A stretch of DNA of 64,000 nucleotides, taken from the NCBI GenBank assembly GCA_030324005.1, contig JARDVH010000115.1:36716794-36780793 (forward strand), read 5' to 3'. The notes below the pieces were generated by a model. That model did no database searches. It was not told where the DNA came from and was given only the letters and a program-made list of their open reading frames with translations. This DNA is from Negaprion brevirostris (lineage: Eukaryota). Made by a program: the position numbers and the translations under genes. Positions 1,132-46,900 of this stretch are shown here, in pieces (positions within the stretch are counted from its first letter, which is position 1; each line of letters opens with the position of its first letter).

Positions 1132-1770
1132 GACCTGAAAAAAAACACAAAGCACTGAGAAAATGAGAACGCAATGCCTCCTGCACTATACAATAGCACA
1201 GTGTAGCTTTCAGTGCTGGCAAAATTAAAAGATATATGAACTAGAACAAAAAAAGTGAAAAACATTAGTGATATTGTGTTAACAAAATTATAAGCACCAA
1301 ATATACATTTTATACTTCAAATGTGTAAACAGTTCATAGTTAGCCATATTGACTAGCTGTTAGATGAGGAGAGGTTGGAGATATAAAGTGCAAGCTTCAA
1401 GTCAACATTCATAGTGGGTTATACTCCTAGTACAAAACATTTTAAAGTATTTGTATATAGTTTGCACATTTGAAACATAAATTAAAAAGTTTTTAAAATT
1501 ATAAGTTCCAGCCTAGGTGTTAATTGCCATATATGTAAAGAAGTACTTTGCATTCCTATTATACAGTGAATAATGACAAACTGTTTAAGGGGTAGGAAAG
1601 GAAGATGGTTGACTCAAGTACAAGTACTTTATTTAGAAATAGGTTGATCATACTTCAGTATTCATTGTGGATTTAGAAAATAAATTAAAAAAACGCAAAC
1701 AAAATTGTGATTTCCTTAGTTTTTCATTGCACTTTAAGCAGCAGTACCAATAGTCTCTCTAAACAATTCT

Positions 1771-1976
1771 TCATTTGTATGCAGGATCTCCTGGCATTCT
1801 GGTGCTTTCCGATTGGTCTACACTCCCAGGTGGTCTCTGTGTGTACAAAAACGAGAGGAGGAAAAGAGCGACGTCTAGAGATGACCAATAAGAAGTGTGT
1901 GATGTTACGGCAGACCAATACCTGCTTTCTACAAGGCCCTCCCGCAGTTCAAAATCAAGGCGATGCTCTAACTCCA
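1771..1976 (-). CDS. DDHD1: DDHD1 last coding exon (VELEHRLDFELREGLVESRYWSAVTSHTSYWSSLDVALFLLSFLYTQ...PAYK*)
   Basis: ORF 1771..2109; tttttctctctgtttag|-type pyrimidine-rich acceptor; contains the His and last Asp of the DDHD signature; TGA at 1771-1773. Confidence 0.95.
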
Positions 1977-4900
1977 CTAAACAGAGAGAAAAGAAAATAG
2001 TCGATGCTTCAGAATTGGAATAGAAATTCAATAAAACAAATTTCACACAAAATTGACACAATTTTCTTACATGCGTAAGTTGCACATTACATGCCCATCT
2101 AGATCTCAACTATACCTTGCTGGACGAGAGGGATTAAAACCTAACTCACTGAAGACCAGCAAGCTGAATAACTGCATAAGTGATCTCCAAGAGCTGTCCG
2201 AACGCTTAGTTTACTGGAAGTCAGAAAAGACAGGCCTCAGCCAACTTTATATTGATATTGGGGCATTTTTCCATCAAGGTATTGTGAAACCCACTTCCTT
2301 TCAGCGCCTTCCATTAATTTTCAATCAGGAGTACAAGATAGAATAAATAAAGCAATAATTCTGCTTGTATTTTAAAAACTTCAGACAAGCAAAGCTCATT
2401 ATGTTACCCAACGTGGGTGATTCTCTTAAATGCAAGTTATCCTTCACGTACCAATGCCATTGATCGAGAGCAATACTTTGACAAACTGAGGCACATTAGG
2501 CAATATTACGGCAGACCAAGTGCTTGGTCAAAGAGTTAGGTTTTAAGAAACATCTTAAAGGGAGGGAGAGAGATAAACGGGCAGAGAGATTTAAAATAGG
2601 AATTCCTGAGCTTAAGGCCTAGGCAATTGAAGGAATGAGAGCAATTAAAACTAGGAGGTTCAAGATGCCTGGACTAGACAAGCACAGTACATTAGCAGAG
2701 AATGGGGACTGGACAAGAACAGAGAGATTGGAAGAAGGACAGGGATTATGTTGAAATCAAGGTTGAGAATTTTAAAATAAAGACATTGTTTAACCAGAAG
2801 CAATGTAGGTCAGCAAACATAGGGATGAAAAGTGAGGAAGTATACTGACAGCCGAGTTTTGAATTATCTCAATTTTACAGAAGAGTAGAATGTGGGCGGC
2901 CAGGCCAGCCAAGAGTGTACCAGAACTGACAAGTCTATAGGTGCCAAAAGCATGAATGACAACCCTTCTACACCCTACAAGATCCATGTTGGAAGGTCAG
3001 TTGAAAACGACCATTCAAATAAAGCTTNNNNNNNNNNNNNNNNNNNNNNNNNNNNNNNNNNNNNNNNNNNNNNNNNNNNNNNNNNNNNNNNNNNNNNNNN
3101 NNNNNNNNNNNNNNNNNNNNNNNNNNNCCCCAGACATTCTCTCTTACAGTTTCTTCCATCAGGAAAAAGATACACAAGTCTGAGATCATGTACCAACCAA
3201 CTCAAGAACAGCTTCTTCCCTGCTGCCAGCAGACCTTGCATGAAGTTGATCTCTATACCCTAGCTATGACTGTAACACTACATTCTGCACCCTCTCCTTT
3301 CCTTCTCTATGAATAGCATGCTTTGTCTATATAGTACTCAAGAAACAATACTTTTCTTTGTATACTAATACATGTGATAATAATAAATCAAATCAAATCA
3401 GAAGATATGTCGATCAGTATTCTCAGAAATAATGAAAGATTCCTCAATCACAAATACTATTTAAATGTTGCACTGTCGTCACTTTATTTTAAGACTTGAA
3501 CAAATCGTCTTTTCCTGATAATACTACAACCCTGGAACATTAGACATGTAAAATACCTCTCACATGTTTTGATAACATTAAAATATAGTTATTGAGAAAG
3601 CAAATCAATATGGAAATGAATGCCTGCACTTACCTGCGCAAAACCAATGATCCCATGTGCATCATCATTTGACTGGATGACGATAACTACTTGATCATGA
3701 GAACCAATCTCAGCTCCTCCTTTTGCATTTGTGAGCTTCACTGCAAAAATCTCATCATCCTCTGGCACATCATCATCAAGAATATTTATTGCTATCACAG
3801 CATCTTTATCCCCAGGTTCAAATATGAGTTCACCAGACCTATAGGTGACAATATAATGTTTACATTAATACTATGAGAAACATAGCAACTTATAGAATTT
3901 TTAAATACAACTCAATTGCATTTTTAAGTTGGTCCAAAGTAATTTGTTTCTTCTGAATTTGATTTGTACTGTACACATTTGTCCAATTTTATTCCACAAT
4001 ACATGATTTTTCACTTGATCTAACAGCAGATAAAAAAGTCTCACAACATCAAGCACCAACTGCTTTACTTGGAATCAAGACTTTCAGAACGCTGCTCCTT
4101 CATCAGGTGAGTGGAGAGGCAGGTTTCACAAACACAGCATATGTAGACAAAGACACAATTACAAGATAATGGTTGAAATGCAAATCTTTTCAGGTAATTA
4201 AGCTCATGATTCCAAATAAACTTGTTGGACTTCAACCTGGTGTTGTGAGACTTCTTACTGTGCTCATCCCAATCCAATGCCGGCATCTCCACATCAAGTG
4301 GAAAGGGTTTAAGCATGATTGATGACCTTAATCACAACCATTTTTTATTTCAAAGACTCAAGGTATGCTCATCAGCAGCGACATAACCAACAAAATGACC
4401 CTCAGGCAGATTACTTCTGAAGTACTGCTCGCCAATCGGTTCCTATTTCAGCCGTGTTACCTTAATTAACATTTTTCATGTCACTATTTAAATAAAATTG
4501 CTGTCATATTTTTAGTGATGTTGTTCAATTTTGTTAGTGTAGGCAATTTAGACAGATCAACTCTTTCATAGTAGCATTAAAAAAAAGTGCAGTTAACTAA
4601 CTATTCCCCATATTCAAGCAGGAGCCTGAAGGATCTAAATCCAGAGTGCATGTTGTTCAAGGAAAGATATTGAAAGACATGTACCAATGAGTTAATAAAC
4701 TAGGGATCATTTCAAACATCAAATGCTTGTTAAGCACTTGATGGGCTAAACCAGCACGTCACTCTTTGGAATGCTCAGAGCTCCCTAAGAATTGTCCTCC
4801 GGTTTTTCGAGAAGGGTAGCACTTACAGGTCAAATCTAAATATGGCAGCTTTCCCTTCAGTTCAGAGCAGAGTAGGTTTTGTTCTTCAAAGCAGTCCATC

Positions 4901-7900
4901 CCATTCTCAGTGTCATCACATTTTTATTTGATCACTGGCCAAACAGGCTAGCAGAAGAGAAGCATGCCACAGGTCAGCTTAGAAGGCTGTAGAGAAACAA
5001 GCCTATCACTGGAGGGGTTCATTCAGTTGGGATTTGGAGAACACAAAGTTACAGCTATTTCTTTTAGTTCACTATTACCATAGCATTAAAGCCCAGATTC
5101 AGCACGAGACCCGATTTAAACAAAATTATTTCTCCCGTATTCCTTGCAGATTGTCAACTTTGTGACTGCGATTTTCTGGCCCTGACACTGGCAGGCATCG
5201 CAACAGGCAGGATGGGAAAATTTGGAGAGCTGTTGACTTTTAATGGGTCTCCAAATTTTCCCGTTCATCCATGACGATGCCCGCCAGTGTCAGGGCCATA
5301 AAATCTCATCCATTGGGAAAACAGATTGAATAATTACAGTTTATCAAATACAATTCAAATTAAGGATAGACATTACTTACTTTGCAGGAAGTTTTAATAA
5401 GAACTTTCATATACTAACCTGTACCATACAAAAGACCAGAATTATTGCGTGACAGCACCCTTGGACTTTGCGGAGCTTCAGCTGCTCTCTTCTCTTCTAC
5501 GACTGTTTCTTCTTCAGCGTTGGAAGTGGAACGTGTGAATCTTGCAAACAGTATACCACCAATACCTTTTCCTATGTGTGCAGCTCCTAATGGGAAGGCA
5601 AAAATGAGAATTCAGATGGGAAAGTGTAATATTTATGAAAGATGTGTACAGTCTATAACACAAGCTTTTATTGCTCTTGGGAAACCACGCTCACCATTTT
5701 CAGTTGCATGTAAAATATTTAGTTGTTAGGCTTAAGCCTAACGTCATAGATTAAAAGGTTTTGAATTTGAAATGGCCGGTCTGCTCAACACTGAAAGCAT
5801 AACATATCAGAAACACTCAGTTTTGGCAGCATCTAGTGAGAGAAAAATAATTTGCGTTTCAAGTCAAATGGTCCAAAAAGAAGAAAGGCCATCAATGGGA
5901 AATGCTAACTCTGTTTTTCTCTCCACAGATGCTGCCTGAGCTGTTGAGTATTTCCAACATTTTCAGGTTTATTTTTTAATTTCAGGTTTTCAGCATCTGC
6001 AGGACTTTGCTTTTGTCTCCCTTCCAGATTCAAAACAGACAGAAGTCACATATATTGTAAATAATCCAGTTGAAGGGTGATATGGTCTGGCTTGATTTAA
6101 AAATTAAAAAAAAACAGGCCACAGATGGGAGGGCAGAGGCACTTCTTTCTCTACTATTTCTTCCAGTTCTTGATAAAAATGGAGAGGACTCTGTTGTAAT
6201 TCAACCAAATGCCAGTTTCCCAATACCAACACCCTTTATTGTGCACCAAAGGGCCGTGCCTGTAGCTTACAGCCAAGGGTCTTCACCTTGGGATCTACAA
6301 GGCTGGACCAAGTAAAGTTACAGGCTCAATAAAACTACTCATACTCCATGATGCCCATGGGAAAAACAATTGGTGATCCCTCATGGCCTTTGTGGCCATC
6401 ATAACATCAGCACCCGCAACCCCCAGTCCACGTCTCTTCCAGCACCCCCACTGCGAGATCTTTTCTGTTGCTTTCCACTCAGTCAGAGGTCTGTTGGTCA
6501 GCAGGGCTGGGTGAGGCAGTGTAAACCAAACAGGGGACCTTCTCTTTCGGAGGAAGCGCTGCATGGTTACTGATGCGGGTTCCTCCTTTGGTTCTGCTTC
6601 AGCCCAGAGGTCCACTTCATCAGCCTCTGTCTCTGAGTATGTACCTTCACACCCAAGGCTAGAAATGAGCACAGGTCCCTGGAGCTATGAAGCAGCAGTG
6701 CTAGCTTCTGTGCCACCTGAGAAGAGCTGGATGGATCGATAGTATCAGAAGCTTGATAGAGGGAGAAATAACAGTGGCACCAATAATTACAGTGGAGAGA
6801 GGCAATGCCTTCAGCCCACATGGATGATGGCTAATTCTGGATGGACCAGCAGAAGGTCCGTGGTCATGATATAAGATCAGTTCCTGTAATATAAATTCTG
6901 GCTTCAGATAATAATAGTACTGGGAAAAATTCTTATCCAGCAAGAACATTTGCTTGAAAAGAATATAAAATTCTTGGAACTGTCAATATTTGTATAACAA
7001 TTAAATGCTGAACTGGTTATGCAGTGCAGCAGTAAAACTTTTGATCAAGGCATTCCATAAAAAACAAAGTTTAAACATTCACTCCTTTAGTGGTCAGTAA
7101 GAATTCCGAGCTCAGTACTGCATTTAAGTTGCTGCTTCAAACACTGAGCCAGGTACTTTTCACACTGGGAGTAGGGCAGAGCATTACTAAATTTAATACC
7201 ACGAAGCGGGCTGCCAGCTGGGAGCTTAATACACTGCAAAATGCTTTTCTCATAATGAAGGATCAGAAATGTTAATCAATTCTCATTTCGGAGCACAGTT
7301 AAATATGATATGGTTTAATAGAATGAGCACTGACATTCCTAAACTTCCTGATCTCCATTCTTTTGGACTGAACTCACTTAAACAGACATCCATGTCTACA
7401 ATGCCACCTTGTGGACCAATAGTATCATGGGATCAGATCACTCAGGCATGAACACGAGAACCCAAGAATTAGGAGCAGTAGGCCATTCAGCTCCTTGTGT
7501 TTCTTCCGTCATTCAATAAGACAATGGTTGATCTGACTGCGGCCTCAACTTCACCTTTCTGCCTGTTCCCCATAACTCTGGGCTCCCCGTAGATCAAAAG
7601 TCTGTCTAACTCCACCTTTGACCACATTGTTGTGGGTCTGGAGGCACATGTAGGTTAGGCCAGGTAAGGACATTAGATTTCTTTCCATCAAGGATATTAA
7701 TAAGTCAGCTTGGGTGAGGAGCTCATTTCACCTTTAATCTCTGGTGCTAGACAGGAAATTTGAAAGGCTTCACCTGGCTCTTTCAATCATACATGTCCTT
7801 GTCCCTTCCCATCTACTCCAGTCCTATAACCAAAATGATCCTCCAAACTCTCCACCTCTTTCTTAACTTCATGCATAAGTTAAGAAACTCTTTTTTAACT

Positions 7901-10900
7901 TACAACGGTGATTGTGCTTTTTGATATCCAAGTACCAAGTTGTAAAATTATCTCCCTAAATCTCTGCTCCTCCAGCTGCTTTTGCTCAGCATCTATTTTG
8001 GTCTGATTAAATGTCTCCAAGCCATCTTGGGTTGTTTTCTATGTTTAAGCTGCTTTATAAATGAGTGTTCCTTTGGTAATGGAAAGAATCACAAAAAAAA
8101 TGAGAGATAGCAAAGCAATCTACAAATACGTCAAGAAGGAGGATTGCTAAATGTGAAAAGGAATCAAAGAGAGGACGGACACTATTACTGCAGCGCTTAA
8201 CCTGCACTATGAATTGGGATAGGAGATAAGATGCCCTCTAAAGTATATGTAGGCATGGATGTGCAGCAACCTGCAAGATACTGCTGTTCACAATTTGCTG
8301 TAGTTAAAAAATTGTATGCATGGCCATTAAAACAAATTTACAGATGCCACCTATTGAAATGAGCAGGTCACGTCCAACAAATAACAGATAGACAGAACGT
8401 TAGTAGAAAGTTACTCCTAAAATTGATTATTAGTGAGTAAAAAACAAAAAGCAGTACAGCACAGGAACAGGCCCTTCAGCCCACCAAGTCTGTGCTGACA
8501 CAAACGCCCCTCTAATATTTTCTTGCCTCTATGTGGTCCATATCCCTCTATCCCCTGCCTATTCATGTATCTATCTAGATGTCTCTTGAACTTATTATAG
8601 AATTTGCTTTCACCACCTCCTCTGGCAGCGCATTCCAGGCATTTACCATTCTCTGTGAAAAACTTTCCCACTTACATCTCTTTTAAACTTTCTCCTTCTC
8701 GCTTTCAACAAATGCCCTCGGGTAATTGACCCTTCAACCCTGGGAAAAAGACTCTGGCTATCCACTCTATCCAAGCCTGTCATAATCTTGTAGACTTCTT
8801 ATCAGATCCTCCCTCAAACTCCGATGCTCCAATGAAAACAATCTAAGTTTGTTCAACCTTTCTTCACAATCCACAAACCAGGCAACATCCTGGTAAATCT
8901 CTTCTACACCGTTTATAATAAATCAACATCCTCCCGGGAGCATGGTGACCAGAATTGTACACAATACTCCAAATGCAGCCTAACTGAAATCTTATACCAC
9001 TGCAACACGACTTTCCAATTCCTATACTCAATGCTCTGACCAATGAAGGCCAGCATGCCATATGCCTTTTTGACCACCTTATCCACTGGAGTTGCCACCT
9101 TCAGGGGACTCTGGATCTGCATGCCTAGATCCCTCTGTATGCTAATATCTCTAAGGGCTCTACCAATTACTATATATTTTCCTACTGCAGTAGACCTTCC
9201 AAGTCAGATCACCATACATTTGTCGTGTTAAATTCCATCTGCCATCTTTCGGCCCAGGTCTCCAGTTGATTTATATCCTGCTGTATCCTCTGATGATCCT
9301 CCTCACTATCTGCTACTCCCCCAATTTTTATATCATCTGCAAATTTACTAAATCAGACCACCTGCATTTTCCTCTAAATCATTTATATATATTACAAACA
9401 GCAGAGGCCCCAGCACTGAGTCTTGGGGAACACCGCTTATCACAGACCTCCAGTTAGAAAAGTACCCTTCCACTGCTACTCCCTGTTCGCTATGCCCAAG
9501 CCAGTTTTGTATCCATCTTACCGGCTCACCTTGGATCTCATGATTTCACCTTCTGGATCAGCCTGCCATGAGGAACCTTATCGATGGGAAATACCACGAG
9601 TTAAAGGAATGCATTGGAGTTTTCAAAGAAGGACAAAATGCCAGGATCTGATGAAATCTATCCAATGATCTGATGGGAATTAGAAAAGGAAATAGTGGAG
9701 CCACGAGAAAGTATGCTTCAGTATTCTATTGAAAGAAAATGTATATCAGTGAACTGGAGAGAAATTAATGTAATCTCCATTTTCAAAGAGGGACAGAGCT
9801 CCAAAAGATAATTACAGACCCATTAGTCTAACATTCATGGTGTGGAAAATGTTGGCATTTTTAGTTATAAAGATGAAATTGTGGAAAAAGATATGAAACA
9901 GTGTAATCAGAAGCTGTCAACATAGAGCGAGTGATGTTCAGAATTGAAAATAATACCAAAGTAGGAAGTTAAGTCAATTGATGGCCCAAGGAAGTTGCAA
10001 GGGAATATTGCCAAGATGATAGGATGATTGAACTTTCTATATTTTGGTTAAGCAAAATTTAAGATTTTAATTCAAATGAGAAAACTGGACATAGAAGAAC
10101 AGACAGATTTGAGAGTTTAGGTTTACCAATCATTTTCTCAACAGGTTAAAATTTAAACTAAGATAAACAGAAACCCTGGAGTTCTAGCAAGAGTTAAGGA
10201 ACACAAAAGTCAAGATATTAATGGCAAAATAAGACCATAGTTGGAGAGATTACTGCACAGAGAAAGGACACCAAGGCCACAGAGATAGTGCATTTTACTC
10301 AGGATGCTGCTTACGATGAAGTGGTAGTACAAAAGAAAGACCTGAAATAACTGAGGCTGTATTTGTTGGAACACTGCAAAACAGAGGCCACTTCATCAAC
10401 AAGAGACTTATATACTAAGTGGAACAGTCAGTCACCTTACATACTTCTCCTATTCAGATTGCAATTAAGAAAACAGTAGACTCAGTCTGTAGAGTGGGAA
10501 AGCATAAACTGGCACCAAGGGAAACAGTGCTACTAAAAAATAGTATCAGTGCACTGCATTTTATAGATAGAATTTATGGTAGCAGCGATATTGAAGTGTC
10601 TACAAACATTGTTTATGAGTAGCTTTGGAAAGGGATTTGAAAAGTGTCTTCAGGGAACTCTCAGTGCGTAACTGTGTCTTTTGAAAAAGATGTTCACAGG
10701 GCTACTTATGGAGCGACCTAGTCAGGTTTTTAAAATGAAATTTCTATGGGTCTGTGTGGCCAACTGTTGCCCCTTGCCTCCTTTACATGCTGCGGTGGAT
10801 TCTGTTCGATCACTTTGCCCCTCTCCTCTTTCACCTCCTCTACATCCATGAGTAGAACTCTTTAATAGGCAAAGCTGCAAACAAGCAGTGCACAACCTTT

Positions 10901-13900
10901 AATATTCTAGCTGGACTACATTATAGAGCTTCCTCTCCCCACAGCAAGCCTCAGAATAGACCTCAATGTCATTTGTCTGGTCTAAGGTCATTCTGTTGAT
11001 TGCTGGAGTTTATAAGTGGACCTGTCATAAGCCATTGTTGCTGACAGTACTGTTGGCCTCAATTTAGTAACTCCCAGGAATGTACATGTTTTGTTTTGTT
11101 ATAGAGCACCTTTCATGTCCCAAACCAATTAAGTTCTTTGAAGTGTAGTCACTGCTGTAATCTAGGAAACATAGCAGCCAACCGGGACACTGAGCTGTTA
11201 TAAAAGCAATGCGATAATGATCTGCTTTGGTGATGTTGATTGAGGATAAATATTGGTCAGGACACCAGGGCCAGGATCTTATGGCCCGCCCTGCCCTGTG
11301 GGATATTACAATCTCGCTGAAGAGAATTTCAATTGCCCACCAAATGGCCTGCAGGAAAGGTCTTGTGGCATAAATCTCAAATGAATTTTCTCAATTATTG
11401 TAGTCACTAAAGCCATGGCTCCTGGGACAAGTGGAGGTCCTATTACACTGGCTTATATATCCTGGTGTAAAATACCAGCAAGCTATGCCAAAAATGCTTG
11501 TGTTTCTGCCTGAACAACCGTATCTTCCTTCCTGGCCCAATCATTCTTTTCCAAAAATCATACGGGACTGGGTTTTTAAGCCCCTGAAGGGGGTGGAAAC
11601 AGGCAGGTGGGCCCAGGATTTTACATCACTGGGTGGGAAGCAGGGCTACCCACCTGAGTAGAGGGTAGCCTATTAAGCCACTTAAAGATCTTGAGGACCC
11701 TGCCTAGGTGAAGAATGCACCCTATTCCCTTCCCCCCATCCGCACAACGATGGTTTAATCTATATTCATCGTTAAATTTGAAAAGGTTAGAGACGATGCC
11801 TCCATCTTGGTGTGTCCTCTTCTTCACTGAACTGCAGCAGCATCCTGTTATTGCTTTCAAACTGGGGAGTGGATTGTCAGGCCCTGTTTTACAGCAGCAT
11901 GCACAATGTTTTACAGAAGACAAGCAATGAAAGTCACAAAACAGGATGTCTGAAATTAGTATCCAACTTCCTTGTTGCTTAGATTTGCTCTTCTGCCAGT
12001 TTATAGCAGAACATTTTCATGGATTGCACAACATGGAGTCCTTCCATTTTTCATTCCTGCTCTAATACCACAACTCAAATTTTAAAATCATGGTCAGAAT
12101 TATACCGAAACACACAGCCGATGGAATTTGTCAGCTGTACTATTAGAAAACACTGACTTTTTAAAATCACTCAATAGCAAATGCACCAATATACTTGCTG
12201 CTCAATGTTCTCATTCTTAAATGATATTCCAGCGTATAAGCAGGTTAATTTAGCCAATTTGCAAATCATTACAGTAAAAAAATCCATTTTGTAGTTGGGA
12301 TGTAGAAAAATTATCTTAGTCATTTTTAATGTTTACAATGCCCTATAATTTTATGATACAAATATATTGTATGCTAATAATAAATGCCTTTTAACATCCA
12401 CTAAAAGAATCACATTACTTCATTGCCCTCTCGAGTTATTTCAGACAGTTTAAAACAGATATATTTTTAACATCTCACCCATTATACTTGCTTTTCCTAG
12501 GCTGGTTATTGATTCCCCATAGTTTCGTCGAGGCATAACTGGTGAGGTACTTGGACTTGACATATTGTCCACTTCTGTATGTGAGGTAGATGCTGAGGGA
12601 GCCATTGACGGATTCATTGACTCTTTGGCAGGCTTGATATAGGTTGGCCTTAGGTCATCGTACTTTGTTAAGACAGCTGTGTTGTACCAATGGATTTGGA
12701 GGGGTGCAATATTACTGTAATGTTTCAGGATCAGAGGTTCTAGTCGATAGGCCTAAAAATAAATGAAGATTTCACACTTGTCAACTCTCTGACTCTCATC
12801 ATCTTTTAGTGCTTTGCACACTTAAAATGGGAAAACATTAGTGAGAAATTACTAAGCACGAGAACTAGAAATGAGAGTTGAGAAATGGATCAAGTATGAG
12901 ATTAAATAGAAACAACAGACACTTGTCATCACTACCTATCACAGAAACCACCGAAGCCAAAAAAGCTACTACTTAATTATATTTTATACTTCATGTTAAT
13001 CAAACTAAAGCATATTCATTCAACATATTTGATTTTTGAAATAAGCATGCCTTGCTTTTCATTCACCCATTGCCAATATTATCAATTTTTCCACTTCAGA
13101 TGCTGGGGCAAGGAGAGATGGAATACACCGCATTTTTCCTTTTCTTGTATTCAGCGGAAAGAAGAATAAGCGTGCCTGTCATTTCACTAAGAATCTCTAC
13201 TGACAGCAAAGAGGGACATTAATCTAACTTACATTGTAGCCCGGCTTATAAAAGTAAAATAAATGTTGAAATTGCTGCACCATCTGGGAGACAAAAGCTT
13301 CCACTTTGGTTTAACTTTTTAATGCAAATCAGAGTAAGTAATCAAGAAATGAAACGTTTGACATTTTTGGGCACGTTGTATAGTATTATACACATTCCTA
13401 GGTCAAATATTGGGGTGGCACTGCAAAAAGAAAAAAAAAATTGGGGTGGCACAGTAGCACAGTGGTTAGCACTGCTGCTTCACAGCTCTAGGGATCTGGA
13501 TTCGATTACCAGCTTGGATCACTGTGGAGTTTGCACATGCTCCTTGTGTCTGCGTGGGTTTCCTGCGGGTGCTCTGCTTTCCTCCCACAGCCCCAAGATG
13601 TGCAGGTTAGGTTGATCGGCCATGCTAAAATTGCCCCTTAGTGTCCTGAGATGCATAGGTTAGAGGGATTAGTGGGTAAGCGTGTCAGGATATTGGGGTA
13701 CGGCCAGGGTAGGGCCTGGGTAGGATTCTGGTTGGTGCAGACTCGATGGGTCGAATGGTCTCTTTCTGGGGGGCAGTTTAGAATGGAGTTGAGGAGGAAC
13801 TTCTTCACTCAAAGGGTGGTGAATCTCTGGAATTCTCTGCCCGNNNNNNNNNNNNNNNNNNNNNNNNNNNNNNNNNNNNNNNNNNNNNNNNNNNNNNNNN

Positions 13901-16900
13901 NNNNNNNNNNNNNNNNNNNNNNNNNNNNNNNNNNNNNNNNNNNGTTCCATGCAGGGAAGGAAATCTGCCCACCACCTGGCTAAAGGCTAACTCAGTGCCG
14001 CAATTTGTAGTTCCACATAAGTGGGAGCACAGAATGGACATGACAAGCCTTGAGTGTGGCAAGGACCAAGTGCTAACTTAGGAATTTGGTGCAGATAGAA
14101 ATCTTGTGGAGAGGGTTAAGGAGCTTCTGTTTTTTATACCAGGTTCTAGTCTCCTTTTAGCTGGTAATTGTTCAAAGCGATTAATTAAGTCAGCAGGTAT
14201 GGGTGATTGGTTGGCAAGGTCGAAGACTTTATCCCTCTAAATGGAGACAGTAGTTTAAACAGTAATAAATATTGCATTAAACTTATAGCTTAACTAGTTG
14301 AACTATTTAATACAACCACAGATGACAGTAGTGATATTTCTAAACTTGAAACCTAATTAGTTAAATAAAACACAACAAAGATGGCAAGGCAGGTGATGTC
14401 TTGTAACTCTTGCATGTGGAAGCTGGTGGATAACCACCTGATTTATGACAATCACAAGTGTCTACAGATCCAGCAACTTTGGCTGTAAGTTGATTATCTG
14501 AAATACAAGTTGCAATGCATCAGGGGGAGAGAGAAAGTTACTTGCACACTTTGTTCTAGGAGACAATCACATCCTTTCGGGCAGAGTCAATGATTGGGTC
14601 CGTGGACAGATAGGGGAAGGTATGACTATAAGTGGCAGGTATGGGGATCAAGGTAGAAATGGAGGAGCCTTGCGCCAAGCAATTGCCTAATGGATTTGAG
14701 GTTTTTGGGCTTGTCCAGATGAAAGCAGGTGTTGCAGGGTGGATGAGCAAACTAACAACGGTGCTTTGGTACAGAAAGCCAATCTTGGGGTGAGGGAGAG
14801 GGTGGGAAGAATTAATGGGAACATAATAGTGGTAGGGCACAATGTGATTAGGGACAGACTGCTCTGCAGCCAAAGCAGATGTCAGGAAGGCTGTGCTGCC
14901 TGTGGACTGGGAAGAAGCTTGCTATTTGGGAGCAGTGTTGGGGGGAGGAGGGGGCACTATGGTGGTTGGATCCAATTGTTGTGGACCATGTAGGTACTGA
15001 CGACAAAAGTTAGAAGAAGAGGTTTCTCCTTAGAGAGTCTGAGCAGCTAGGCACTAAATTAGAAAGCAGAACTTCTAAGGTAAAAATATCTGGATTATTT
15101 ACCTGAGCCACAAGCAAACTGGAGTAGGGTAAGTAAGTTTCAAGAGTTAAATGCATGGCTCAAAGATTAGTTTTGGAGAAATGAGGTTCAATTCATGGAG
15201 CACTGGCAAAGTGGGAATTGTACCTTTTGGATGGTCTTCACCTGAACTATGCTGAGACAGGCGTTATGGGGTAGAGAGGGCTTTAAGCTAAATAGTTGGG
15301 GTGAAAGATCAAGTGATGGAAGATGTGATAAATTTAAGAGAAGGGACAAGGCAAAAAAGCAAGATAACAATAAGGGAATTGATAATCTGAGTGTGGAAGA
15401 AAGAGCTGGAGCATTTAAATCAGAATGTGCCAGCGTATAAGGCTAGGAGTTACAAAAATAATAAAAAGACAGAATTAAAGACAGTCTATCTGAATGTACG
15501 AGGTAGATGAATTGATGGCTCAAATTCATGTAAAAACGTGCAATATAATTGCTATTATGGAGACATGGTTAAGGTGCATTACACATAGAATGAAAACTCA
15601 CCACAGGGTCAGTTGGGTGAAATATATTGTACAATCGGCCACAGATACTTCTCGGTAGAATGTGATCCTGATTACCACTATGTTGAGGCCGTATGCCACG
15701 TAATGCTAGGAAAACAGCTAGAGGGGATCCCATACAGANNNNNNNNNNNNNNNNNNNNNNNNNNNNNNNNNNNNNNNNNNNNNNNNNNNNNNNNNNNNNN
15801 NNNNNNNNNNNNNNNNNNNNNNNNNNNNNNNNNNNNNNNNNNNNNNNNNNNNNNNNNNNNNNNNNNNNNNNNNNNNNNNNNNNNNNNNNNNNNNNNNNNN
15901 NNNNNNNNNNNNNNNNNNNNNNNNNNNNNNNNNNNNNNNNNNNNNNNNNNNNNNNNNNNNNNNNNNNNNNNNNNNNNNNNNNNNNNNNNNNNNNNNNNNN
16001 NNNNNNNNNNNNNNNNNNNNNNNNNNNNNNNNNNNNNNNNNNNNNNNNNNNNNNNNNNNNNNNNNNNNNNNNNNNNNNNNNNNNNNNNNNNNNNNNNNNN
16101 NNNNNNNNNNNNNNNNNNNNNNNNNNNNNNNNNNNNNNNNNNNNNNNNNNNNNNNNNCTATTGATTGTTGGCAAGTCCGGACGATCTTGCAGTGGTCGGG
16201 GCCAGAAAATCCCACCCAGAGGTTGTTCATTCTGTCCTTTCTGCTTGCACATCAAGCCAAACCTTCTCCAAGGCTGCTGCTTTTCCTAGCATATTATTCC
16301 AGTTGATGACTGGGAACAGGCTCACAACCAGTATCACACTAGTAACTGAAGTATAAATGTACCAGAAATAATCTGAATTCCATGAAGGTCTATGATCTAT
16401 GTAAAGCTCTAGTTGCAGAAGGAGAGAACCCCGAGAATAAAACAATTCAGCTGTTGCTGACGTCTGTAACTTATCAGATGGCGCAAAACCGTCATCGCTG
16501 AGGATTATTTTTAATTAAAGATTTGTGACCTGTGGCTCTGCCTACCATCTTAGGCAAGGAAAGGAAAACATACACACTACAGATACTTTCACCTTAACTG
16601 CAGTTTTAAACTCAAACTCAGCGGAGCTGAAATTCTGTTTGAGGGAAAAGCATTGCAGGCAGTTTTATTAACACAAACTATCAGAAAAATACACAGTCAA
16701 AACACAAAGACATGCTGCACCAGTAATCAAAAGTACAAGGCTGTTGAGAACAATATAACTACATTCTCAAGTGAACTTAAATGAGTTAGTCTACTTTTTT
16801 TTTGTTAGTAAGGGACAGGCATATGACCGCCTCTCGATTTTAATTACGCAAATTTTAAACTGTAGGTTAACAAATCTACTTCTACACACCTTAAATTTCA

Positions 16901-37900: not shown

Positions 37901-40900
37901 TTTCCAAAGTCAAACAACAATCTCATTCTCTCTCTCTCTTTCTCTCTCTTCCCCCCCCTCCCCCATTCAGTGAGCAGAATCAGGTGGCTGGGGGGCTGGA
38001 TGATTATATTCAAATCCATTAAAATGAGATCCTTGCCCTCTGTGGGCACGGACCTCATGACATCACTGGCAAAGGGTGGGAAAAATTAGAAAAGCGACCT
38101 CGGCATTCTCTCTGATGCATACGCTGAAAATTGTCCCCATCACATGTATACCAAACCAGGAGTAAATTCTCCCAGAAAATTTTAGCACCCACAATTGGCT
38201 TGTGACACCAACAGCAATTTCTAGGTTCTCTTGCAAGGTATGTTGATGTCTTCCTGGAGAAGAAGGAATTACTGCTTGGTAAAACATACTTTTCCAGTCA
38301 GAGATGTGAATAAATTTTTACAGGAAGATTTATTCAGAAGGACTGCAATTAATGTATTTATTAATTAATCACAGTACTTTTGGTTCAGATCTTTGCTTAT
38401 CTTTGATGCAATGAGGCAGGGAACACATTGTAATTAAAGGTAAGATTTTGCACAATATAATTGGTAAATAATAGAAGTATAACAAAAAATATTTGAAATG
38501 AGAACAAAAACTTAAATTAATGTGTCACAAGTAACCAGCAGCTTGCCTAATCCTGGGATGATGGCAGATATCAGAAACAAAATATTCTAAGTATACAATA
38601 CAGGTTTAGTACCAGTAAAGGCCAAATTAAAAATTTTGAAAATGTTATAAAAATACAAGTTGTATATTATTCCATTACTTTAATACATGGGTTTTGCCTG
38701 CAGCGTTTGAATTACAAATATCTCCAGAGTCAGATATAATATTCCATTGTGATATCACTCATAGGAACGACTGACCCATTTTCAACTGCTATGCACATGG
38801 AACCCTTCACCACTTTGGCCTTCAAAGTTCTTGTTTGAATATTTGCTACTACCACCACCAAGATCTATACCTCCAACTGGACTTCCATGCTCACCACAGC
38901 AGCCTGTCTCACCAGCCTGTATCGTATACTTCGAATATTTTGTGCCTAATATCTGCCATCATCCCTGGAGTTGGCACACTGTTGGTTACCTGTGACACAT
39001 TCATTTAAATTTTTGTTGTCATTTCAAATATTTTTATTATACTTCTATTATTTACCAATTATATTTCATAAAATCTTGTGTTTAGTTACAATGTGTCCTC
39101 TGCCTCATTGCATTAGAGATATTCCAGCTGACTATTATGCTTGGTAGTCAGCTAGGATTCAATAAAGTTTACAAAGCAATGCCATCATTCTCTACATTTT
39201 CTAATCTTTGCCGTTTCAGAAATTTCAATCTACTGCAAAACAATGAATTAATAATTTATCACAAGTGCATCTGGATTAGTCACAAAATAAGCAACGAACA
39301 TGGCATTTTCATAACTGCAGATCACAAGAACAGCTAAATAATTCTTTTCACCAAGGAGGTGGTAATTTTCAATCCACATGATGCATAAATATCAAATGCC
39401 AAAATTTTGCTTTTTTATTTCCCTGGAAAGTTTTGAATATCAGTATATTGCTAGGGTAAAATTGCTACGCTACGCTGGACCAAGATTAAAAACAAACTCC
39501 AGTAGCTGATGATAAGTTGGTTATTAAGACAAGTTATACATACATCTCAGAGAAAAATCTCTAGATATCTCAGAAAAATTCGGACTAACTTTGCTTTCTC
39601 TTTTAAAAAAAAGAAAGTACCTATGTTTATGTTGCATCTCTTAGCAACCCAAGGACAGCAGCTTGCACTTACAGAATGCTAATATGTTCCACGCTTCAGA
39701 GAACCATGCTGAGAAATAAATTCACATGAAAGCAAAGAAAGCAAAATTAGGATGGGTGACCAAAAGATTGGTTAAAGATACAACTTTTTAGAAGGGTTGT
39801 GAAAGGAGAAGAGATTTATAGAGAACATACTGCTTAGAACCTTGGCACAGGAATTTGGGGGTGTTCAAAACTCGAACAAGTAGTCTGCAATGTTCTTAAG
39901 GAATTCAGGAAGTTACAGAATAAATTTGGGGTCATCAAAGGATTTCATCATGAGATCATGAATATTAAACTGGAGGCCTTTGAAGACTGTGAGCCAGTGT
40001 AGGTCAGCAAGAAAAGGGTGATGGATGAGCAGGACTTCTTGTACTATGATATGGGCAGGACAATTTTGTATAGTCTAAGTGGAGGTTGGCCAGAACAGCA
40101 TTGGAATAAATTGAGCAGAGGCACAGATGGAGGTTTCAGCAGCAAATAAGCTGAGACTGGAGCGAGAAAAGATAGTTAAAGTAAGCATTCCATGTGATTA
40201 TGAGGACACAGGTTCAGAAGTTCAGCCCTGGACCATACAGGATGTTGAGGTTGTGAGCAGTCCTTTTTAAACAGAGTCGGGTGCCTGGCGGGGAATGGAA
40301 TCTAACAGAGGGGATGTGGCAGGAGCCAAAGAACAATGGCTTCTATTTTTCCAATATTTAACTGGAGGAAACTACAGCTCATCTAGGACTCTTGTTAGAT
40401 ATGCAGTCTGGAGCGGTTCAGTCAGAATTAACACAAAAAATTGCAAGAGAAATGCGAGCTAACAAACAACACAGAAAAGTAAAACTAGAAGAGATATCGT
40501 AAAGAAACAAAAAGGTGTATCAAGCATAAGAAAGTAAAGATGAGGAAGAAATTCAAGCAAAAATAAACAAGGAAAAAAAAGAAAACAGAAAAATAAAACT
40601 GAGGAATAAATGCAAAGCATTATGGTTGAGAGTTATGTTTAACATTATTTGGAGAAGATATGTAGTTGGAAACTGTAATTCCGGGTAGGAAAAGGCATCA
40701 GCCTCCCCAAAAGTCCATTCTGCATTTTGAACTGTGTGAAGAGCCTTTTGACATAATTGAGAAATGTATTTTCTGCTATTTTGCATTCCTTATCTCATAT
40801 TGCAGATTTACCTTTTCCATTGCTTTTCTGGTCTTTTGTGTCTCAAAGCAGATCTGATATTTACCTCCTTTCAGGACTAAATGCTTCAAGTTTCTCAGAT

Positions 40901-43900
40901 GCTCTGGATTACTTTGCAACACGAGAAGCTTAAGCTTTTCCTGGAGAATTGGTCAAAGGTATAATGTGACCAAAGCATAGACAACTTCCTCATACCTGTA
41001 CTTTACTGCTTCGTCGACATGGTTCAGCGTTCTGCATGTTTTGTTAGCTGCGCTGATTGGACATGTTGGACACAGAATCGATTAATCTTTTAGAATTGGA
41101 TCACTCATGGAATGTGCAAAACACTTACTTTGCCTATCTGTATGCAAGACTTCCATTTAATTTCATTGGCCACTGTTCCATCCACTTATATTTTATTCAT
41201 CACTAAGTATTTGGCAGTTATCTTATACATCTTCCCATTTTTCATGTGGTGATCATGTCTTTCCTCAGACTTACCTGCTTCTCAGTGCCTGATGGTCTAC
41301 AAATGTGACCAGTTGCATTGAGTTTCTGAATCCAAGCCATTATTGTAAATAGGAAATTGTTCTATAATCTATTGGCATGAATTGTGTTTGAATAGTAAAG
41401 ACTTGTTGCCTGAATTCCCCCTGACCTCACATATCATCGAAGGATGTGAGGTGACCTGACAGAAGGGTATAAGATGTTGAGAGGTACAGACTGGGTGGAT
41501 TCTCAGAGGCTTTTTCCCAGGGCTGGAATGGTTGCTTCGAAAGGACACAGGTTTAAGGTGCCGGGGAGTAGGTACAGAGGAGATATCAGGGGTTAAGTTT
41601 TTCACTCAGAGCGTAGTGGGCGAGTGGAATCGGCTGCTGTCGGTGGCGGTGGAGGCAAATTCGATAAGGTCTTTTAAGAGATTTCTGGATGAGTACATGG
41701 GACTTACTAGAATTGAGGGTTATAGGTAAACCAAGTAGGTAGGGATATCATTGGTGCAAGTTGTGTGCCGAAGGGCCTGTTTGTGCTGTAGTTTTTCTAT
41801 GTTCTATCAATATAGGAATTAGATGTTCCTTTTCCAAATTGAAGAGATTTAACAAAATAAAATTTGTGCTTCTGGTAATCTGACCACAGCAATACAGCAG
41901 ATATAAAAGCAAAATACTGTAGATGTTGCAAATCTGAAATAAAAACAGAAAATGCCAGATAAACTCAGCAAGTCTGGCAGCATCTGTGGAGGGAGAAACA
42001 GTTAACATTTCATGTCCATGTGGTTCTTCTTCAGAGCCAAAAGTGGGAGAAATGTGATGATGGATATTATACCATAAGAGACAGGTAGTGCAAAATTGAA
42101 GGTCAGTGATATGTAAGAGCTAGAAGGGATTGCACGAAGATGTTTGGGGAGCAAGAGAAAGTAAATGTTAATTGCAGTGAGATAAAGTCGCCACAGTCCC
42201 AAATAACCATAACCCTTTTGTGGGGCACAGCTGACTGATGGTGACTTAACCCAAGGATCACCACACCTCAGGCGAGGAGCCAAATTGAGAAGATGAGGCC
42301 TTCGTGAATAACGTCAGCCAGTACAGGAATTGAACCCATGCTGTTGGCTTCACTCTGTAACACTAACCACCTGAGCTAGTGTAAAGAGAACAATAGAAAA
42401 TACTGATAGTGGTGTAAAGATAAGAGAGCAGAATTGTTAATAGGAGAACAAAGGTCTGTGCTTAGAGAAGGCAAAACTTAAGAACAGGTAACAGATGGCC
42501 CTGCAGCATTTTTTGGATTTAAAAAAAAAAGTCAAAGTGGAGCAGAAAGTCTAAATTTGTTCAACTTAACATTGAATCCATANNNNNNNNNNCTGTAACT
42601 TCCTCATCAGAGGATGAGGTGCTGTTCCTCCAATTTGCATTCCACTTCATTGAACATTGCAGCAGGCCAAGGACGGATATTGGTCAGGATAGCAAGATGG
42701 TGAATTGAAATGGCAAGCACCAGGGTCACGCTTCTGGACTGAGTAAAGGTAGTCCATAAAGGGGTCACCCGGTCTGCGTTTAGTCTCCCCAGTGCACAGG
42801 AAACGACATTGGGAGCAACGAATAGAGTAGATTGAATTGAAAGAGGTACAAATGAAGTGCTGCTTGACCTGAAAGGAATGTTTGAGATTTAGACAATGAG
42901 GAGCTAAATGGCCAGGGGATGGAGGTGACGGTGGGGTGGACCAGGGTGTCATGGAGGGAGCAGTCCCCACAGAACGCTGACAGGAGAAGTAAGTGATGAT
43001 GTATTTTGTGGTGTTGTGCTAGGGTTGGCAGAAATGGTAGAGGATAATCCTATGAACATGGAGGTTGGTGGAATGGAAAGTAAGCAGAAGGAGAGCTTAT
43101 CATGGTTCCGGAAGAAAGAGAAGGGGGAGGGACTTGTGGGAAATGGGTCAGACATGATTGAGTGCTCCGTCATGGTGGAGCGGGGGCACGGTTTTCAAAG
43201 TTGAAGGTTGCATCACTGGAAATGATGCAAAGAAGGCCAAGAAACTGGGAGAATGGGATCGAGTCCTTACAGGGACACAAAAGGAGCTGTGGAAGTCGGT
43301 GGTGAATATTGGTGGTCAGTCTATCACCAGAAATTGAGACAGAGAGGTCAAGGAAAGGAATGCACCATGTGAACATAAGAGGGAGGTGGAAGTTGGAAGC
43401 AAGGAAAAGATACATTTTTCCAGGTCCAGGCAAGAGCATGAAGTGACACTGATACACTCATTGATAAGACAGAAAAAGATTTGCAGGAGGGGGCCGGAGT
43501 TAGGACCAGAACAAGGAATGTTCCACATAATCCACAAAACAAAAAAAGCAGACATAACTGAAGCCCATATACGTATCCATACCCACACCTTTTATGTGCA
43601 GGAAACACAAGTTAAAGGATAAATGGTGGAGTTGCAGAACAAGTTCAGCTTGGTAGAGGAGAGTGGCGGCAGACAGGGGTTGTTTAGGCCTCTGTTCAAC
43701 TTCAACTTAATTATTTGTTTGAAGCAATTCAGCAGATAAATGCATAATTTAGACTCTACGGGCACAAAATTCAGACATGGTCGAGTACTTATGAGGTTGA
43801 AAACAGTATCTGGGGCATTGATATGGATGTCAACACTGCTGCAAATATGACATCAATTGGCACATTCCACTGATGTGATGCCAGCGCTACTATTTTAGAA

Positions 43901-46900
43901 CCCAACAGAAACATCTCAAACTCACACAGATGTACATGCATTCTGTAAAAGGGAGGACATCCTGCCAACACCAGCACTATTTAAAGGGATCAGCAACTAT
44001 TTGCAGATTAGTCGTCGATTGATTTCAGCAAGTTGTTGCTATGAATGTACAAGCATTTGATACTTCCTAGAGTTGGCTAAGTTGTTGAGGTCTGCAAAGA
44101 GTGGTTTGGCAGGTACTGATGTACTTTGGTCCTGGCTTCAGGGCTTCTGTACAAACCATTGCAACCCAGATGAGTGAAGCAGTAGACATTACTTTTTGGG
44201 ATACAGCAGGACTAGGAGAATGCAGAGCAGGGCAAACAGCTAGGGAAACAAGTAGGTAAAAAAGGACTACTCAGCAGGAGACTATTATCCACACAGGGTG
44301 TTCAGGGAGCAATTCTCCTACCTGAATCTAGCAAGGAACAAGGTGAGACATCTGCGCTTCAGTAAGGACATCTTCACTGTAATCTGTTACCTGCTGCAAC
44401 CGCAACTGCAGAACAGAGCAAGGACAGCACTATGAATTGCTGTGAAGGTGAACGTAGCTATGAGCTTTTATATCAGTCCCTTTCCAGGTTGAAGTTGAAG
44501 ATATTTGAAATTTCTCGCTGTTTGCCATCCACTATTGCATGGGGGAGGTTACTGACGTTCTTTTTTCAAAGAGACCTGACTACATTTCATTCTCTGTTGC
44601 CAGAGAGCAGGAGGTGGAACGAATACACAGTTTCATTACGATTGCAAGTTTCCCCATGGTGTAGAATGGCATTGACCACAATCATTTCACTTTGTAGGTA
44701 CCACATCAACTGAGATGTACATGAACAAAAGGGATTCCACTCCTCCAATGTTCAGCTGGTGTGTAAGAAAACATGGGAAATCATGCAGATTAATGTCCTG
44801 TATCCTGGCAGCAGTCATGATGCCTTTATTTTGTGGCAGTCTATCGTACCACTTGCACTTGAGCCACCAGACAAACCAAAGGATGACTAATAGGCACCAA
44901 GGGCTACTCACGGATGACAAGGTTCACGGACTCCTGTGCGCAATAAAAGCACAACTAGATAGCATGAATACAATCATTGCCATGATGCCACATGTGACAG
45001 AGCAGACCACTGGTATGCTGAAACAACTCTTTTGCTTCTTGGGCCGCTCAAGAGGAACCTTGCGGTACTCAGCTGAGTAAGCATCAAGATTCGTAGTGCT
45101 CTGTTGCTTGCTGCGTAACTTTTCTATGAAGTCCGCAGGACACCTGCCAGCAACTATATGGCAAGAAAGTGAGGGGCTAAAAAGAAGGGAGGCTTTAGCT
45201 TAAACAGTCCCTTTCTGACAGGACCATGAACAACTCATCTGACTGATACCAGTAAATGCAACCCCAAATTCTCCATTCTCTAACTGTCTTACATCCTACC
45301 TTCCCTACATCACTGATTATGACCAAATGCATGCAGTGATAATGTACAAATAAGTCAACACAAAATAAACATTCTAAATCAAATTTACTATATTGCACAT
45401 GAATGCAAGTTAATCATCTTTATGCATTCTTTTCGTATCTGATGTCTTTGTCTCAGTTTTCCTACATAGAGCTCCCTGAGTGACTGCAATATGGAGGAGG
45501 CTGCAAACAGAATTGCAGGATGTCCTCACACATCTCTGGCCTGAGAGGTCCAGCTTTGGAGAACATTATCCTGGCATGGGCACTAGCATGACTGGCTGGC
45601 TGACAGGCAACAAAAAGACCTGTAGATTGGGAGGACAGATGACAGTAGGTTTGNNNNNNNNNNNNNNNNNNNNNNNNNNNNNNNNNNNNNNNNNNNNNNN
45701 NNNNNNNNNNNNNNNNNNNNNNNNNNNNNNNNNNNNNNNNNNNNNNNNNNNNNNNNNNNNNNNNNNNNNNNNNNNNNNNNNNNNNNNNNNNNNNNNNNNN
45801 NNNNNNNNNNNNNNNNNNNNNNNNNNNNNNNNNNNNNNNTGATCGAATCAAAACCGTATGAATAAAGTTGGCCACCACTACCACACTGGAAAGCACGGGC
45901 CTTGGACCTTCAAACTCTGCACTAAGCCCTGTGCAACATTGGCACTGGACTCTATGCTCTTGCATGCAGCCTTTCTGGCTGGCCCGCCAATACACTGCGT
46001 ATTTGTGCTTACCCATCAGCCTTTTCCTTAGGTTGCCCAGTGTTCATCTGAATCGCTCCAGCAGAACCCATGCATGACCTCGCCCTCTGGCAATCTGGCA
46101 GCTATACAACCCTTGCTCTCTGCCGTGACTGCAAGTTATTCATATCCTGTGTCTCACCACTAACAGATCATGTCTCCCACCTATTTTCTTAATTATGTGC
46201 AGTGTGTATATCTGAATGGTAACTGCGAGTGTGAAATCAAGCAACAATGTTTCTCCATCAGCAATGTCTTGATGCTCTTCCACCACTACCTGGTCAGTTA
46301 GTAGTTCTTGATATCAGAAAGGAGAAAGGCACAAAGGTAAGGCTGTTGGGAGGGGAGCGGGAATGGGAAGGAGTGGGAAACTTGAGATGCAGGCTTACAT
46401 CTGCAGCTTGTAACTAAAAGGAGATTGCAGGAGGAGGAAATGAGATGAGGAGGAGGAAAATTTAGGTATGAGGATATCATCACCTTCAATGACTTCAGCC
46501 AAGTCGCTGGCCATGTCTTGAGCAACAGCTGATGAAGAAACATTGTTGCCCCAACGATCAGCAGCACCATTTTCTCCGTTGGGGTGAGGACATGCAGACG
46601 TGCCTGCCCACTGCCAGTTAGTACCAGCTACATTGGTTATGCATCATAGATTCCTACAGTGCAGAGGCCATTCGTCCCATTGAGTTTGCACTGACTCGAA
46701 CAGAGTATCTTCTCTAGGCCCTCGCTCCTACCCAATCCCTGTAACCCCACACATTTCCCATGGATAATGGGACACTGAGGGAGAATTTAGCATATGGGCT
46801 CTATTCTCTCCCTATAGATGCTGTCAGATCTGCTGACATTTTCCAGCATTTTCTGTTTTTGTTTCAGATTCCAGCATCTGCAATATTTTGTTTTTTTATA

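Follow-up and report, generated by a model that had tools for sequence, protein, structure and literature searches.

The exon for a Calx-beta repeat that lies in the last intron of DDHD1b in the draft genome assembly of Negaprion brevirostris is, judged from contigs, very probably an ordinary exon of ADGRV1 that was misjoined into DDHD1b at a repeat-mediated chimeric contig end, with the switch between the two genes falling within 4117–4268. All positions refer to the window, by which we mean the whole stretch of 64,000 nucleotides analyzed here; the features on which the argument rests are collected in Table 1.

Table 1. Features around the exon and the proposed join
Feature	Position	Strand	Details
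DDHD1b last coding exon	1771..1976	-	99% to Mustelus asterias DDHD1b; Pfam DDHD positions 217-258
100-N gap	3028..3127	.	second junction required by a true insertion absent from the sequence
3' end of very high-copy repeat, AAATC-type tail	3128..3400	+	contig ends in it; summed depth up to 3.7e6, bin 3184-3327
Unique island: exon and intron flanks	3377..4109	.	X1 3377-4109 (0 differences), X2 3406-4109, X7 3380-4109, X9 3593-4116
ADGRV1 coding exon, Calx-beta repeat after EPTP/EAR block	3634..3838	-	67/68 identical to XP_078070005.1 aa 3540-3607
Inverted repeat, putatively Penelope-like	4025..4296	.	eroded arm ~4025-4085, hammerhead-like motif to ~4112, tail to 4199, second arm 4200-4296
DDHD1b last intron, 5' part	4269..5418	-	contigs X1 4269-5268, X2 4269-5233, X7 4271-5014, X9 4320-5182
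DDHD1b penultimate exon	5419..5586	-	phase-1 donor; tblastn of P0014, 50/57 identical

Identity of the exon

The exon is 205 nt long and runs on the minus strand from 3838 to 3634, between the acceptor ...cacctatag|G at 3839/3838 and the donor CAG|gtaagt at 3634/3633. It is open for 68 residues (P0001) in the frame starting at 3837, its phases are 2 to 0, and its translation scores 31.6 bits against the Pfam family Calx-beta (PF03160; cut-off, 27 bits). Both the sequence and Pfam thus bear out the first-pass annotation, which had described a stop-free Calx-beta exon of this length with an AG acceptor and a CAG|gtaagt donor.

The best match among 1.84 billion representative sequences is ADGRV1 from Mustelus asterias (P0169, XP_078070005.1), with which the exon shares its place just past the EPTP region (aa 3540–3607), its borders, and its phases; the differences are that the window holds this exon only and shows one private change, H for N. 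This sole mismatch is located at 3699, where the window encodes His and Asn is found in all 10 chondrichthyan ADGRV1 proteins as well as in the sequencing runs X9, X2, and X7 described below; run X1 agrees with the His of the window. Identity to ADGRV1 amounts to 58–61 of the 68 residues in seven other sharks, 51–52 in two batoids, and 46 in human. The same ADGRV1 repeat is the best-matching segment in each of 14 vertebrate ADGRV1 proteins (88–133 bits, with the runner-up segment at 54–64), the Mustelus protein giving 133 bits for the best segment and 61 for the second.

The borders of the exon recur elsewhere: contig ORFs from other vertebrates (P0005–P0011) stop matching at the same residues, and an animal locus with 53% identity (L001) agrees with the exon in its AG|G acceptor, its phase, and its gtaagt donor. 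The splice sites and phases are thus inherited from ADGRV1 and carry no sign of selection within DDHD1b; any fragment of ADGRV1 should have good splice sites, whether or not DDHD1b uses them. ADGRV1 cannot spare an exon of 205 nt, and because this length is not a multiple of 3, losing the exon would cause a frameshift in ADGRV1.

Searching the window by tblastn with full-length Mustelus ADGRV1 (6197 aa) and four further Calx-beta proteins placed 91 segments on the exon and a single stray one elsewhere (E = 0.46), in line with the earlier statement that the 64 kb contain no other ADGRV1 exon. Comparison of all 356 stop-free frames of at least 52 aa with Pfam (above the cut-offs, three DDHD, one Calx-beta, and one DDE_Tnp_4; four more below) revealed no second foreign exon, and so no sign that misjoins are frequent in this window. 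A metagenome scan for the true flanks of the exon yielded six loci among 331 pattern matches, 37–53% identical and none of them close enough. Judged by title, none of the papers found on ADGRV1 in sharks deals with an exon in DDHD1b.

In all eight chondrichthyans that could be compared, the sequence carrying ADGRV1 differs in length from that carrying DDHD1b, the respective lengths being 147,988,225 and 91,211,459 in Mustelus, 199,962,141 and 289,498,315 in Scyliorhinus canicula, 228,627,932 and 102,347,732 in Cetorhinus, 146,811,608 and 95,765,476 in Chiloscyllium plagiosum, 139,723,901 and 96,416,223 in Stegostoma, 212,062,168 and 130,974,252 in Heterodontus, 187,191,526 and 212,297,639 in Hypanus sabinus, and 131,315,132 and 75,329,052 in Amblyraja; Pristiophorus and Heptranchias, two of the 10 chondrichthyans with ADGRV1 entries, were left out. 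The two genes are therefore probably on different chromosomes in these relatives.

The host gene

The host is the shark gene DDHD1b. With tblastn, the proteins from Mustelus (P0014) and Scyliorhinus (P0015) map to 11 and 12 exons, respectively, all of which are on the minus strand and together extend from 59524 to 1774, and the order and frame of the DDHD1b exons in the window are normal. Relative to shark DDHD1b (PF02862), exon order and frame are alike, and the assembled last intron differs by a foreign island and a gap. This intron, 5418–1977, is in phase 1. The window contains 15 gaps of N, and the contig with the exon is bounded by those at 3028–3127 and 13844–13943. Together, tblastn and the gap map confirm the placement given by the first-pass annotation, namely between DDHD1 exon 11 at 5419 (in human numbering; the penultimate exon of DDHD1b) and the last exon at 1976, on the gap-free contig that also holds exons 10 and 11.

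In 44 of 54 chondrichthyan DDHD1b proteins, the sequence of the penultimate exon passes directly into the ELEHR motif encoded by the last exon; seven have other short ends, none of which resembles the Calx-beta exon. It had also been pointed out that mammalian DDHD1 carries an alternative cassette in the same intron. That cassette is real (P0097 versus P0102; its motif occurs in 8 of 155 DDHD1 proteins), but it is absent from all 54 chondrichthyan proteins, and since sharks are without it, the shared position is, from these protein comparisons, most likely due to chance.

Copy number of the exon in shark DNA runs

Contigs of four shark DNA runs (X1, X9, X2, and X7, from 24 in 13 studies) were aligned to 1600–5900 at 90% likeness. 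Run X1 shows one difference from the window in the 3,569 letters of four long contigs; it may be the source of the assembly, or at least come from the same species, and is thus not independent. Runs X9, X2, and X7 represent three studies and differ from the window by ~2–3%, with 82% of X7 covered. Run X9 carries the organism code of X1 at this distance of ~2–3% from the window, and most of its listed alleles are common to X2 and X7; its organism label may be broad or wrong.

Among the contigs listed, the exon is found on a single unique contig in each of the four runs, in an island of 0.5–0.7 kb between two very high-copy repeats. The sequences flanking the exon within 3377–4109 would be ADGRV1 intron. 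At site 3699, one contig accounts for the whole depth in X9, X2, and X7, and the total depth in X1 is that of its island contig; by this measure, no further exon copy with at least 90% likeness turned up in any of the four runs. The ratio of island depth to that of the neighboring DDHD1b contigs is 1.24 in X1, 1.03 in X2, 1.40 in X7, and 0.98 in X9, to be read with the caveat that contig depth does not equal copy number, flank contigs within X9 alone ranging from 4.02 to 8.53. Rough Poisson estimates, assuming reads of 150 nt, give P values for doubled depth of 4e-4 (X1), 3e-11 (X2), 4e-3 (X7), and 9e-5 (X9). A 1.5-fold depth fits X1 as well as a 1-fold depth does (likelihoods of 0.0255 and 0.0248) and fits X7 better.

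The earlier suggestion that the exon may have been recently transduced or duplicated is therefore not borne out, as a second copy at the donor gene was not seen and doubled depth is disfavored in all four runs. Contig depth, taken as the check for an extra copy, shows no doubling, a heterozygous extra copy being compatible with X1. A duplication and a chimeric join had been considered equally plausible; the chimeric join stands as the better supported of the two, with one exon contig per run and depth ratios of 0.98–1.40, and the equality is to be dropped. Since one copy is seen per genome, the ADGRV1 protein sequence is kept, and ADGRV1 without these 205 nt would be frameshifted, the copy is most likely the one in ADGRV1, on another chromosome than DDHD1b.

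These data also bear on an older arrangement common to these sharks, in which the exon was duplicated or moved before the four lineages split and was kept as a poison exon. All four runs do break inside the same repeat, and the order of island, repeat, and DDHD1b intron is uncontradicted among the contigs listed. An old duplicate, however, predicts a second contig or doubled depth, neither of which is observed in X2 (1.03) or X9 (0.98), whereas a move would frameshift ADGRV1. Moreover, an out-of-frame poison exon would have no reason to keep 67 of 68 residues in the frame of ADGRV1, and none of 155 DDHD1 proteins shares a 6-mer with the exon or a 5-mer with the out-of-frame peptide, the latter being weak evidence given that NMD forms are rarely annotated. 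We find this history hardly credible.

Repeats and the site of the join

Two features had been reported to bracket the exon, a 100-N gap at 3028–3127 and a repeat at 4030–4295. The gap is confirmed; the repeat is present, with its limits refined to 4025–4296, and a second, very high-copy repeat at 3128–3400 has to be added, which may be a Rex1-like LINE. Summed contig depth is 1e5–4e6 in both repeats versus 4–14 for unique contigs. Within 4025–4296 it is 6e4–2e6, and unique contigs end at 4109–4116 and restart at 4269–4320. The foreign piece makes up the terminal ~1 kb of the 10.7-kb contig, which stops in the second repeat at the 100-N gap, as would be expected of a chimeric contig end positioned according to its larger part. 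The misjoin is thereby placed, by inference, at 4117–4268. No contig among those listed for the four runs bridges 4110–4268 or 3128–3376, and 2934–3027 has little cover in any of them; neither observation was counted as evidence. A search for a direct repeat of at least 20 nt bracketing the foreign piece gave no match among 15 repeat families. Contig ends of a HindIII type, as the AAGCTT at 3027 might indicate, were rejected, for the motif is right at the edge in only one of 15 gaps.

Two further copies of the inverted-repeat family are found in the window at 53390–53735 and 60279–60540, the latter split by the 100-N gap at 60359–60458. When the arms were compared over alignment columns 31–66, the two arms of the focal repeat agreed at 23 of 31 positions, with a 5-nt gap in addition, while the focal right arm agreed with another copy at 31 of 36. 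In both control copies, the best match of each arm is its own partner (35/36 for 60279–60540 and 30/36 for the other). The unlike focal arms thus fit two repeat copies that were joined, in what is a small test of 31–36 columns with two controls. Three observations speak against a misjoin: the layout of the focal repeat, with a long and a short arm as in both controls, also fits one old natural insertion; the focal arms share subfamily letters; and a piece from X7 covers 4147–4227 with five differences, which shows that the inner junction at 4199/4200 is not confined to this assembly. The island contigs of X9, X2, and X7 already enter the left arm, and the DDHD1b contigs of X2 and X7 already begin within the right arm. 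With the arms already present in relatives, any join was therefore in register between pre-existing repeat sequences, and its maker was either the assembler or homology-guided repair in the animal.

If the assembler was responsible, the contig path of this low-depth short-read draft would have left DDHD1b within 4117–4268, where the repeat in its last intron gave way to another copy of the family located in an intron of ADGRV1. The path would then have continued for ~1 kb through ADGRV1 and halted in the next repeat, after which scaffolding would have positioned the contig according to its 9.6 kb of DDHD1b. Under this reading, splicing in the animal would keep the exon in frame within ADGRV1 and would connect 5419 to 1976 in DDHD1b.

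The inverted partial arms of 4025–4296, together with a CTGATGA...GAAA motif, suggest by their sequence a Penelope-like element. Excerpts of two sources describe inverted pseudo-LTR structures for these retroelements (10.1101/2021.04.23.441226; PMC6155905); the likeness consists of an inverted partial arm beside a 5′-truncated tail and of a CTGATGA...GAAA motif similar to a minimal hammerhead core. The remnant in the window differs in having no RT or GIY-YIG frame, no Rfam match, and no fold better than shuffles: its four overlapping frames match no Pfam family, a search of 3128–5900 against Rfam gave no matches, the repeat remaining without one at E values up to 1, and three of three foldings of the hammerhead-like motif were no better than shuffled sequences (z = −0.22). 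According to excerpts of 10.1101/2021.04.23.441226, the inverted structures of Penelope-like elements are often troublesome in short-read assembly, and such elements can also retrotranspose intron-containing host genes.

This latter ability is one route to a real, very recent, and possibly heterozygous insertion of ~1 kb of ADGRV1 into the last intron of DDHD1b, private to the individual or species, the other being ectopic repair or recombination between repeat copies. If spliced in, the inserted exon would introduce a premature stop 161 nt before its donor, and NMD would be likely. Such an insertion accords with an assembled contig that is gap-free across the join, with intact splice sites on the strand of the host, with a depth ratio of 1.24 in X1 that is compatible with a heterozygous extra copy (P = 0.11), and with the position of the island, on the minus strand, just 3′ of the repeat tail. 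On the other hand, a homozygous identical duplicate is disfavored in X1 (P = 4e-4, rough), and both ends of the insertion would have to lie within repeats of high copy number and line up in register with an arm that X2 and X7 already carry in their DDHD1b intron. The arms are unlike, while a single retrotransposition should give near-identical ones; placement on the same strand has a one-in-two chance; and the acceptor of the exon is weaker than those of the host. We consider a private insertion quite unlikely.

A chimeric contig could also have switched farther inside DDHD1b. At 5167–5308, there is a small palindromic element of modest copy number with 34-nt arms that are 91% complementary, and the contigs of all four runs end within it or close to it. 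If the switch were here, 4269–5200 would also be ADGRV1 intron and 4025–4296 a single natural copy. The breaks of the four runs near 5182–5268 and the layout of 4025–4296 as one insertion would agree with this, but the breaks at 5214–5268 are each bridged by contigs of another run. That of X1 at 5265–5268 is spanned by contigs from X2, X7, and X9 that start at 5214–5217, and that of X2, X7, and X9 is spanned by the X1 contig 4269–5268, with at least 31 letters on each side, though inside the repeat. We thus give a switch at 5167–5308 very little credence and retain 4117–4268 as the site of the misjoin.

Predicted effect of the exon in DDHD1b

Poison exons that trigger NMD are known in splicing-regulated genes, and NMD is generally expected when a stop codon precedes a downstream junction by more than 50–55 nt. 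Recomputing the phase clash proposed in the first-pass annotation (an exon of phases 2 to 0 in a phase-1 intron) led to the same TGA at 3797–3795. Inclusion in DDHD1b is predicted to add 13 out-of-frame residues past the junction glycine before this stop, which is predicted to lie 161 nt upstream of the donor of the exon, a distance that would suffice for NMD if the exon were included. The last residues of the DDHD signature had been expected to be lost; a loss is indeed predicted, and its extent can be refined to ~42 residues, corresponding to Pfam DDHD positions 217–258.

Like known poison exons, the predicted stop lies more than 55 nt before the junction; the difference is that conservation here follows the protein frame of ADGRV1, with no regulatory pattern of DDHD1b. 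The pyrimidine fraction at the acceptor is 0.55, versus 0.86 and 0.82 at two host DDHD1b acceptors. The search of 155 DDHD1 proteins for the exon 6-mer or out-of-frame 5-mer, negative as stated above, is weak for the same reason, and no literature on DDHD1 with a poison exon was found. The end of Scyliorhinus isoform X4, which resembles the out-of-frame peptide, was dismissed, as read-through of the exon-11 donor fits better by eye. The exon is probably not a new regulatory exon of DDHD1b.

Relation to known assembly errors and implications

Interchromosomal chimeric contigs are defined in excerpts of PMC6816165. With these, the contig studied here has in common that its parts come from different chromosomes in relatives and that the foreign part is terminal and begins in a repeat; it differs in that the foreign part, ~1 kb, is under the 10 kb alignment floor that the tool in these excerpts uses for correction. 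If the misjoin is true, the case serves only as a warning that low-depth shark drafts can hold kilobase pieces of foreign genes at contig ends, joined via inverted repeats, and that such pieces mimic transduced exons; in this assembly, the gene model of ADGRV1 would miss one exon and appear frameshifted. If the insertion were true instead, exon shuffling mediated by repeats could be watched directly before fixation, which is rare, and a poison exon would have arisen de novo in a cartilaginous fish, with working splice sites in the orientation of the host and with the loss of the last 42 DDHD positions.

Other features of the window

A fragment of a DDE_Tnp_4 transposase scores above the Pfam cut-off at 44714–44887 (+), and a weak RVT_1 fragment is present at 9351–9545 (−). 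A candidate EMP24_GP25L domain at 40779–40952 (−) is below the Pfam cut-off, and its translation and a PDB search were unsupportive; this is likely a chance match.

Two alternative forms of DDHD1b itself can be recognized. At 1840–1727 (−), a second frame crosses the last exon and 3′ UTR and is entered via an internal AG at ~1842. It is identical at 25 of 38 positions to the C-terminus of a DDHD1b isoform from Chiloscyllium punctatum (P0146) and similar to one from Hemiscyllium (P0149), and likely represents a conserved shark isoform without the end of the DDHD domain. At 52700–52593 (−), there is a 36-aa DDHD1b exon that is contained in the Scyliorhinus isoform P0015 and absent from P0014 and P0017, and is likely a cassette exon.
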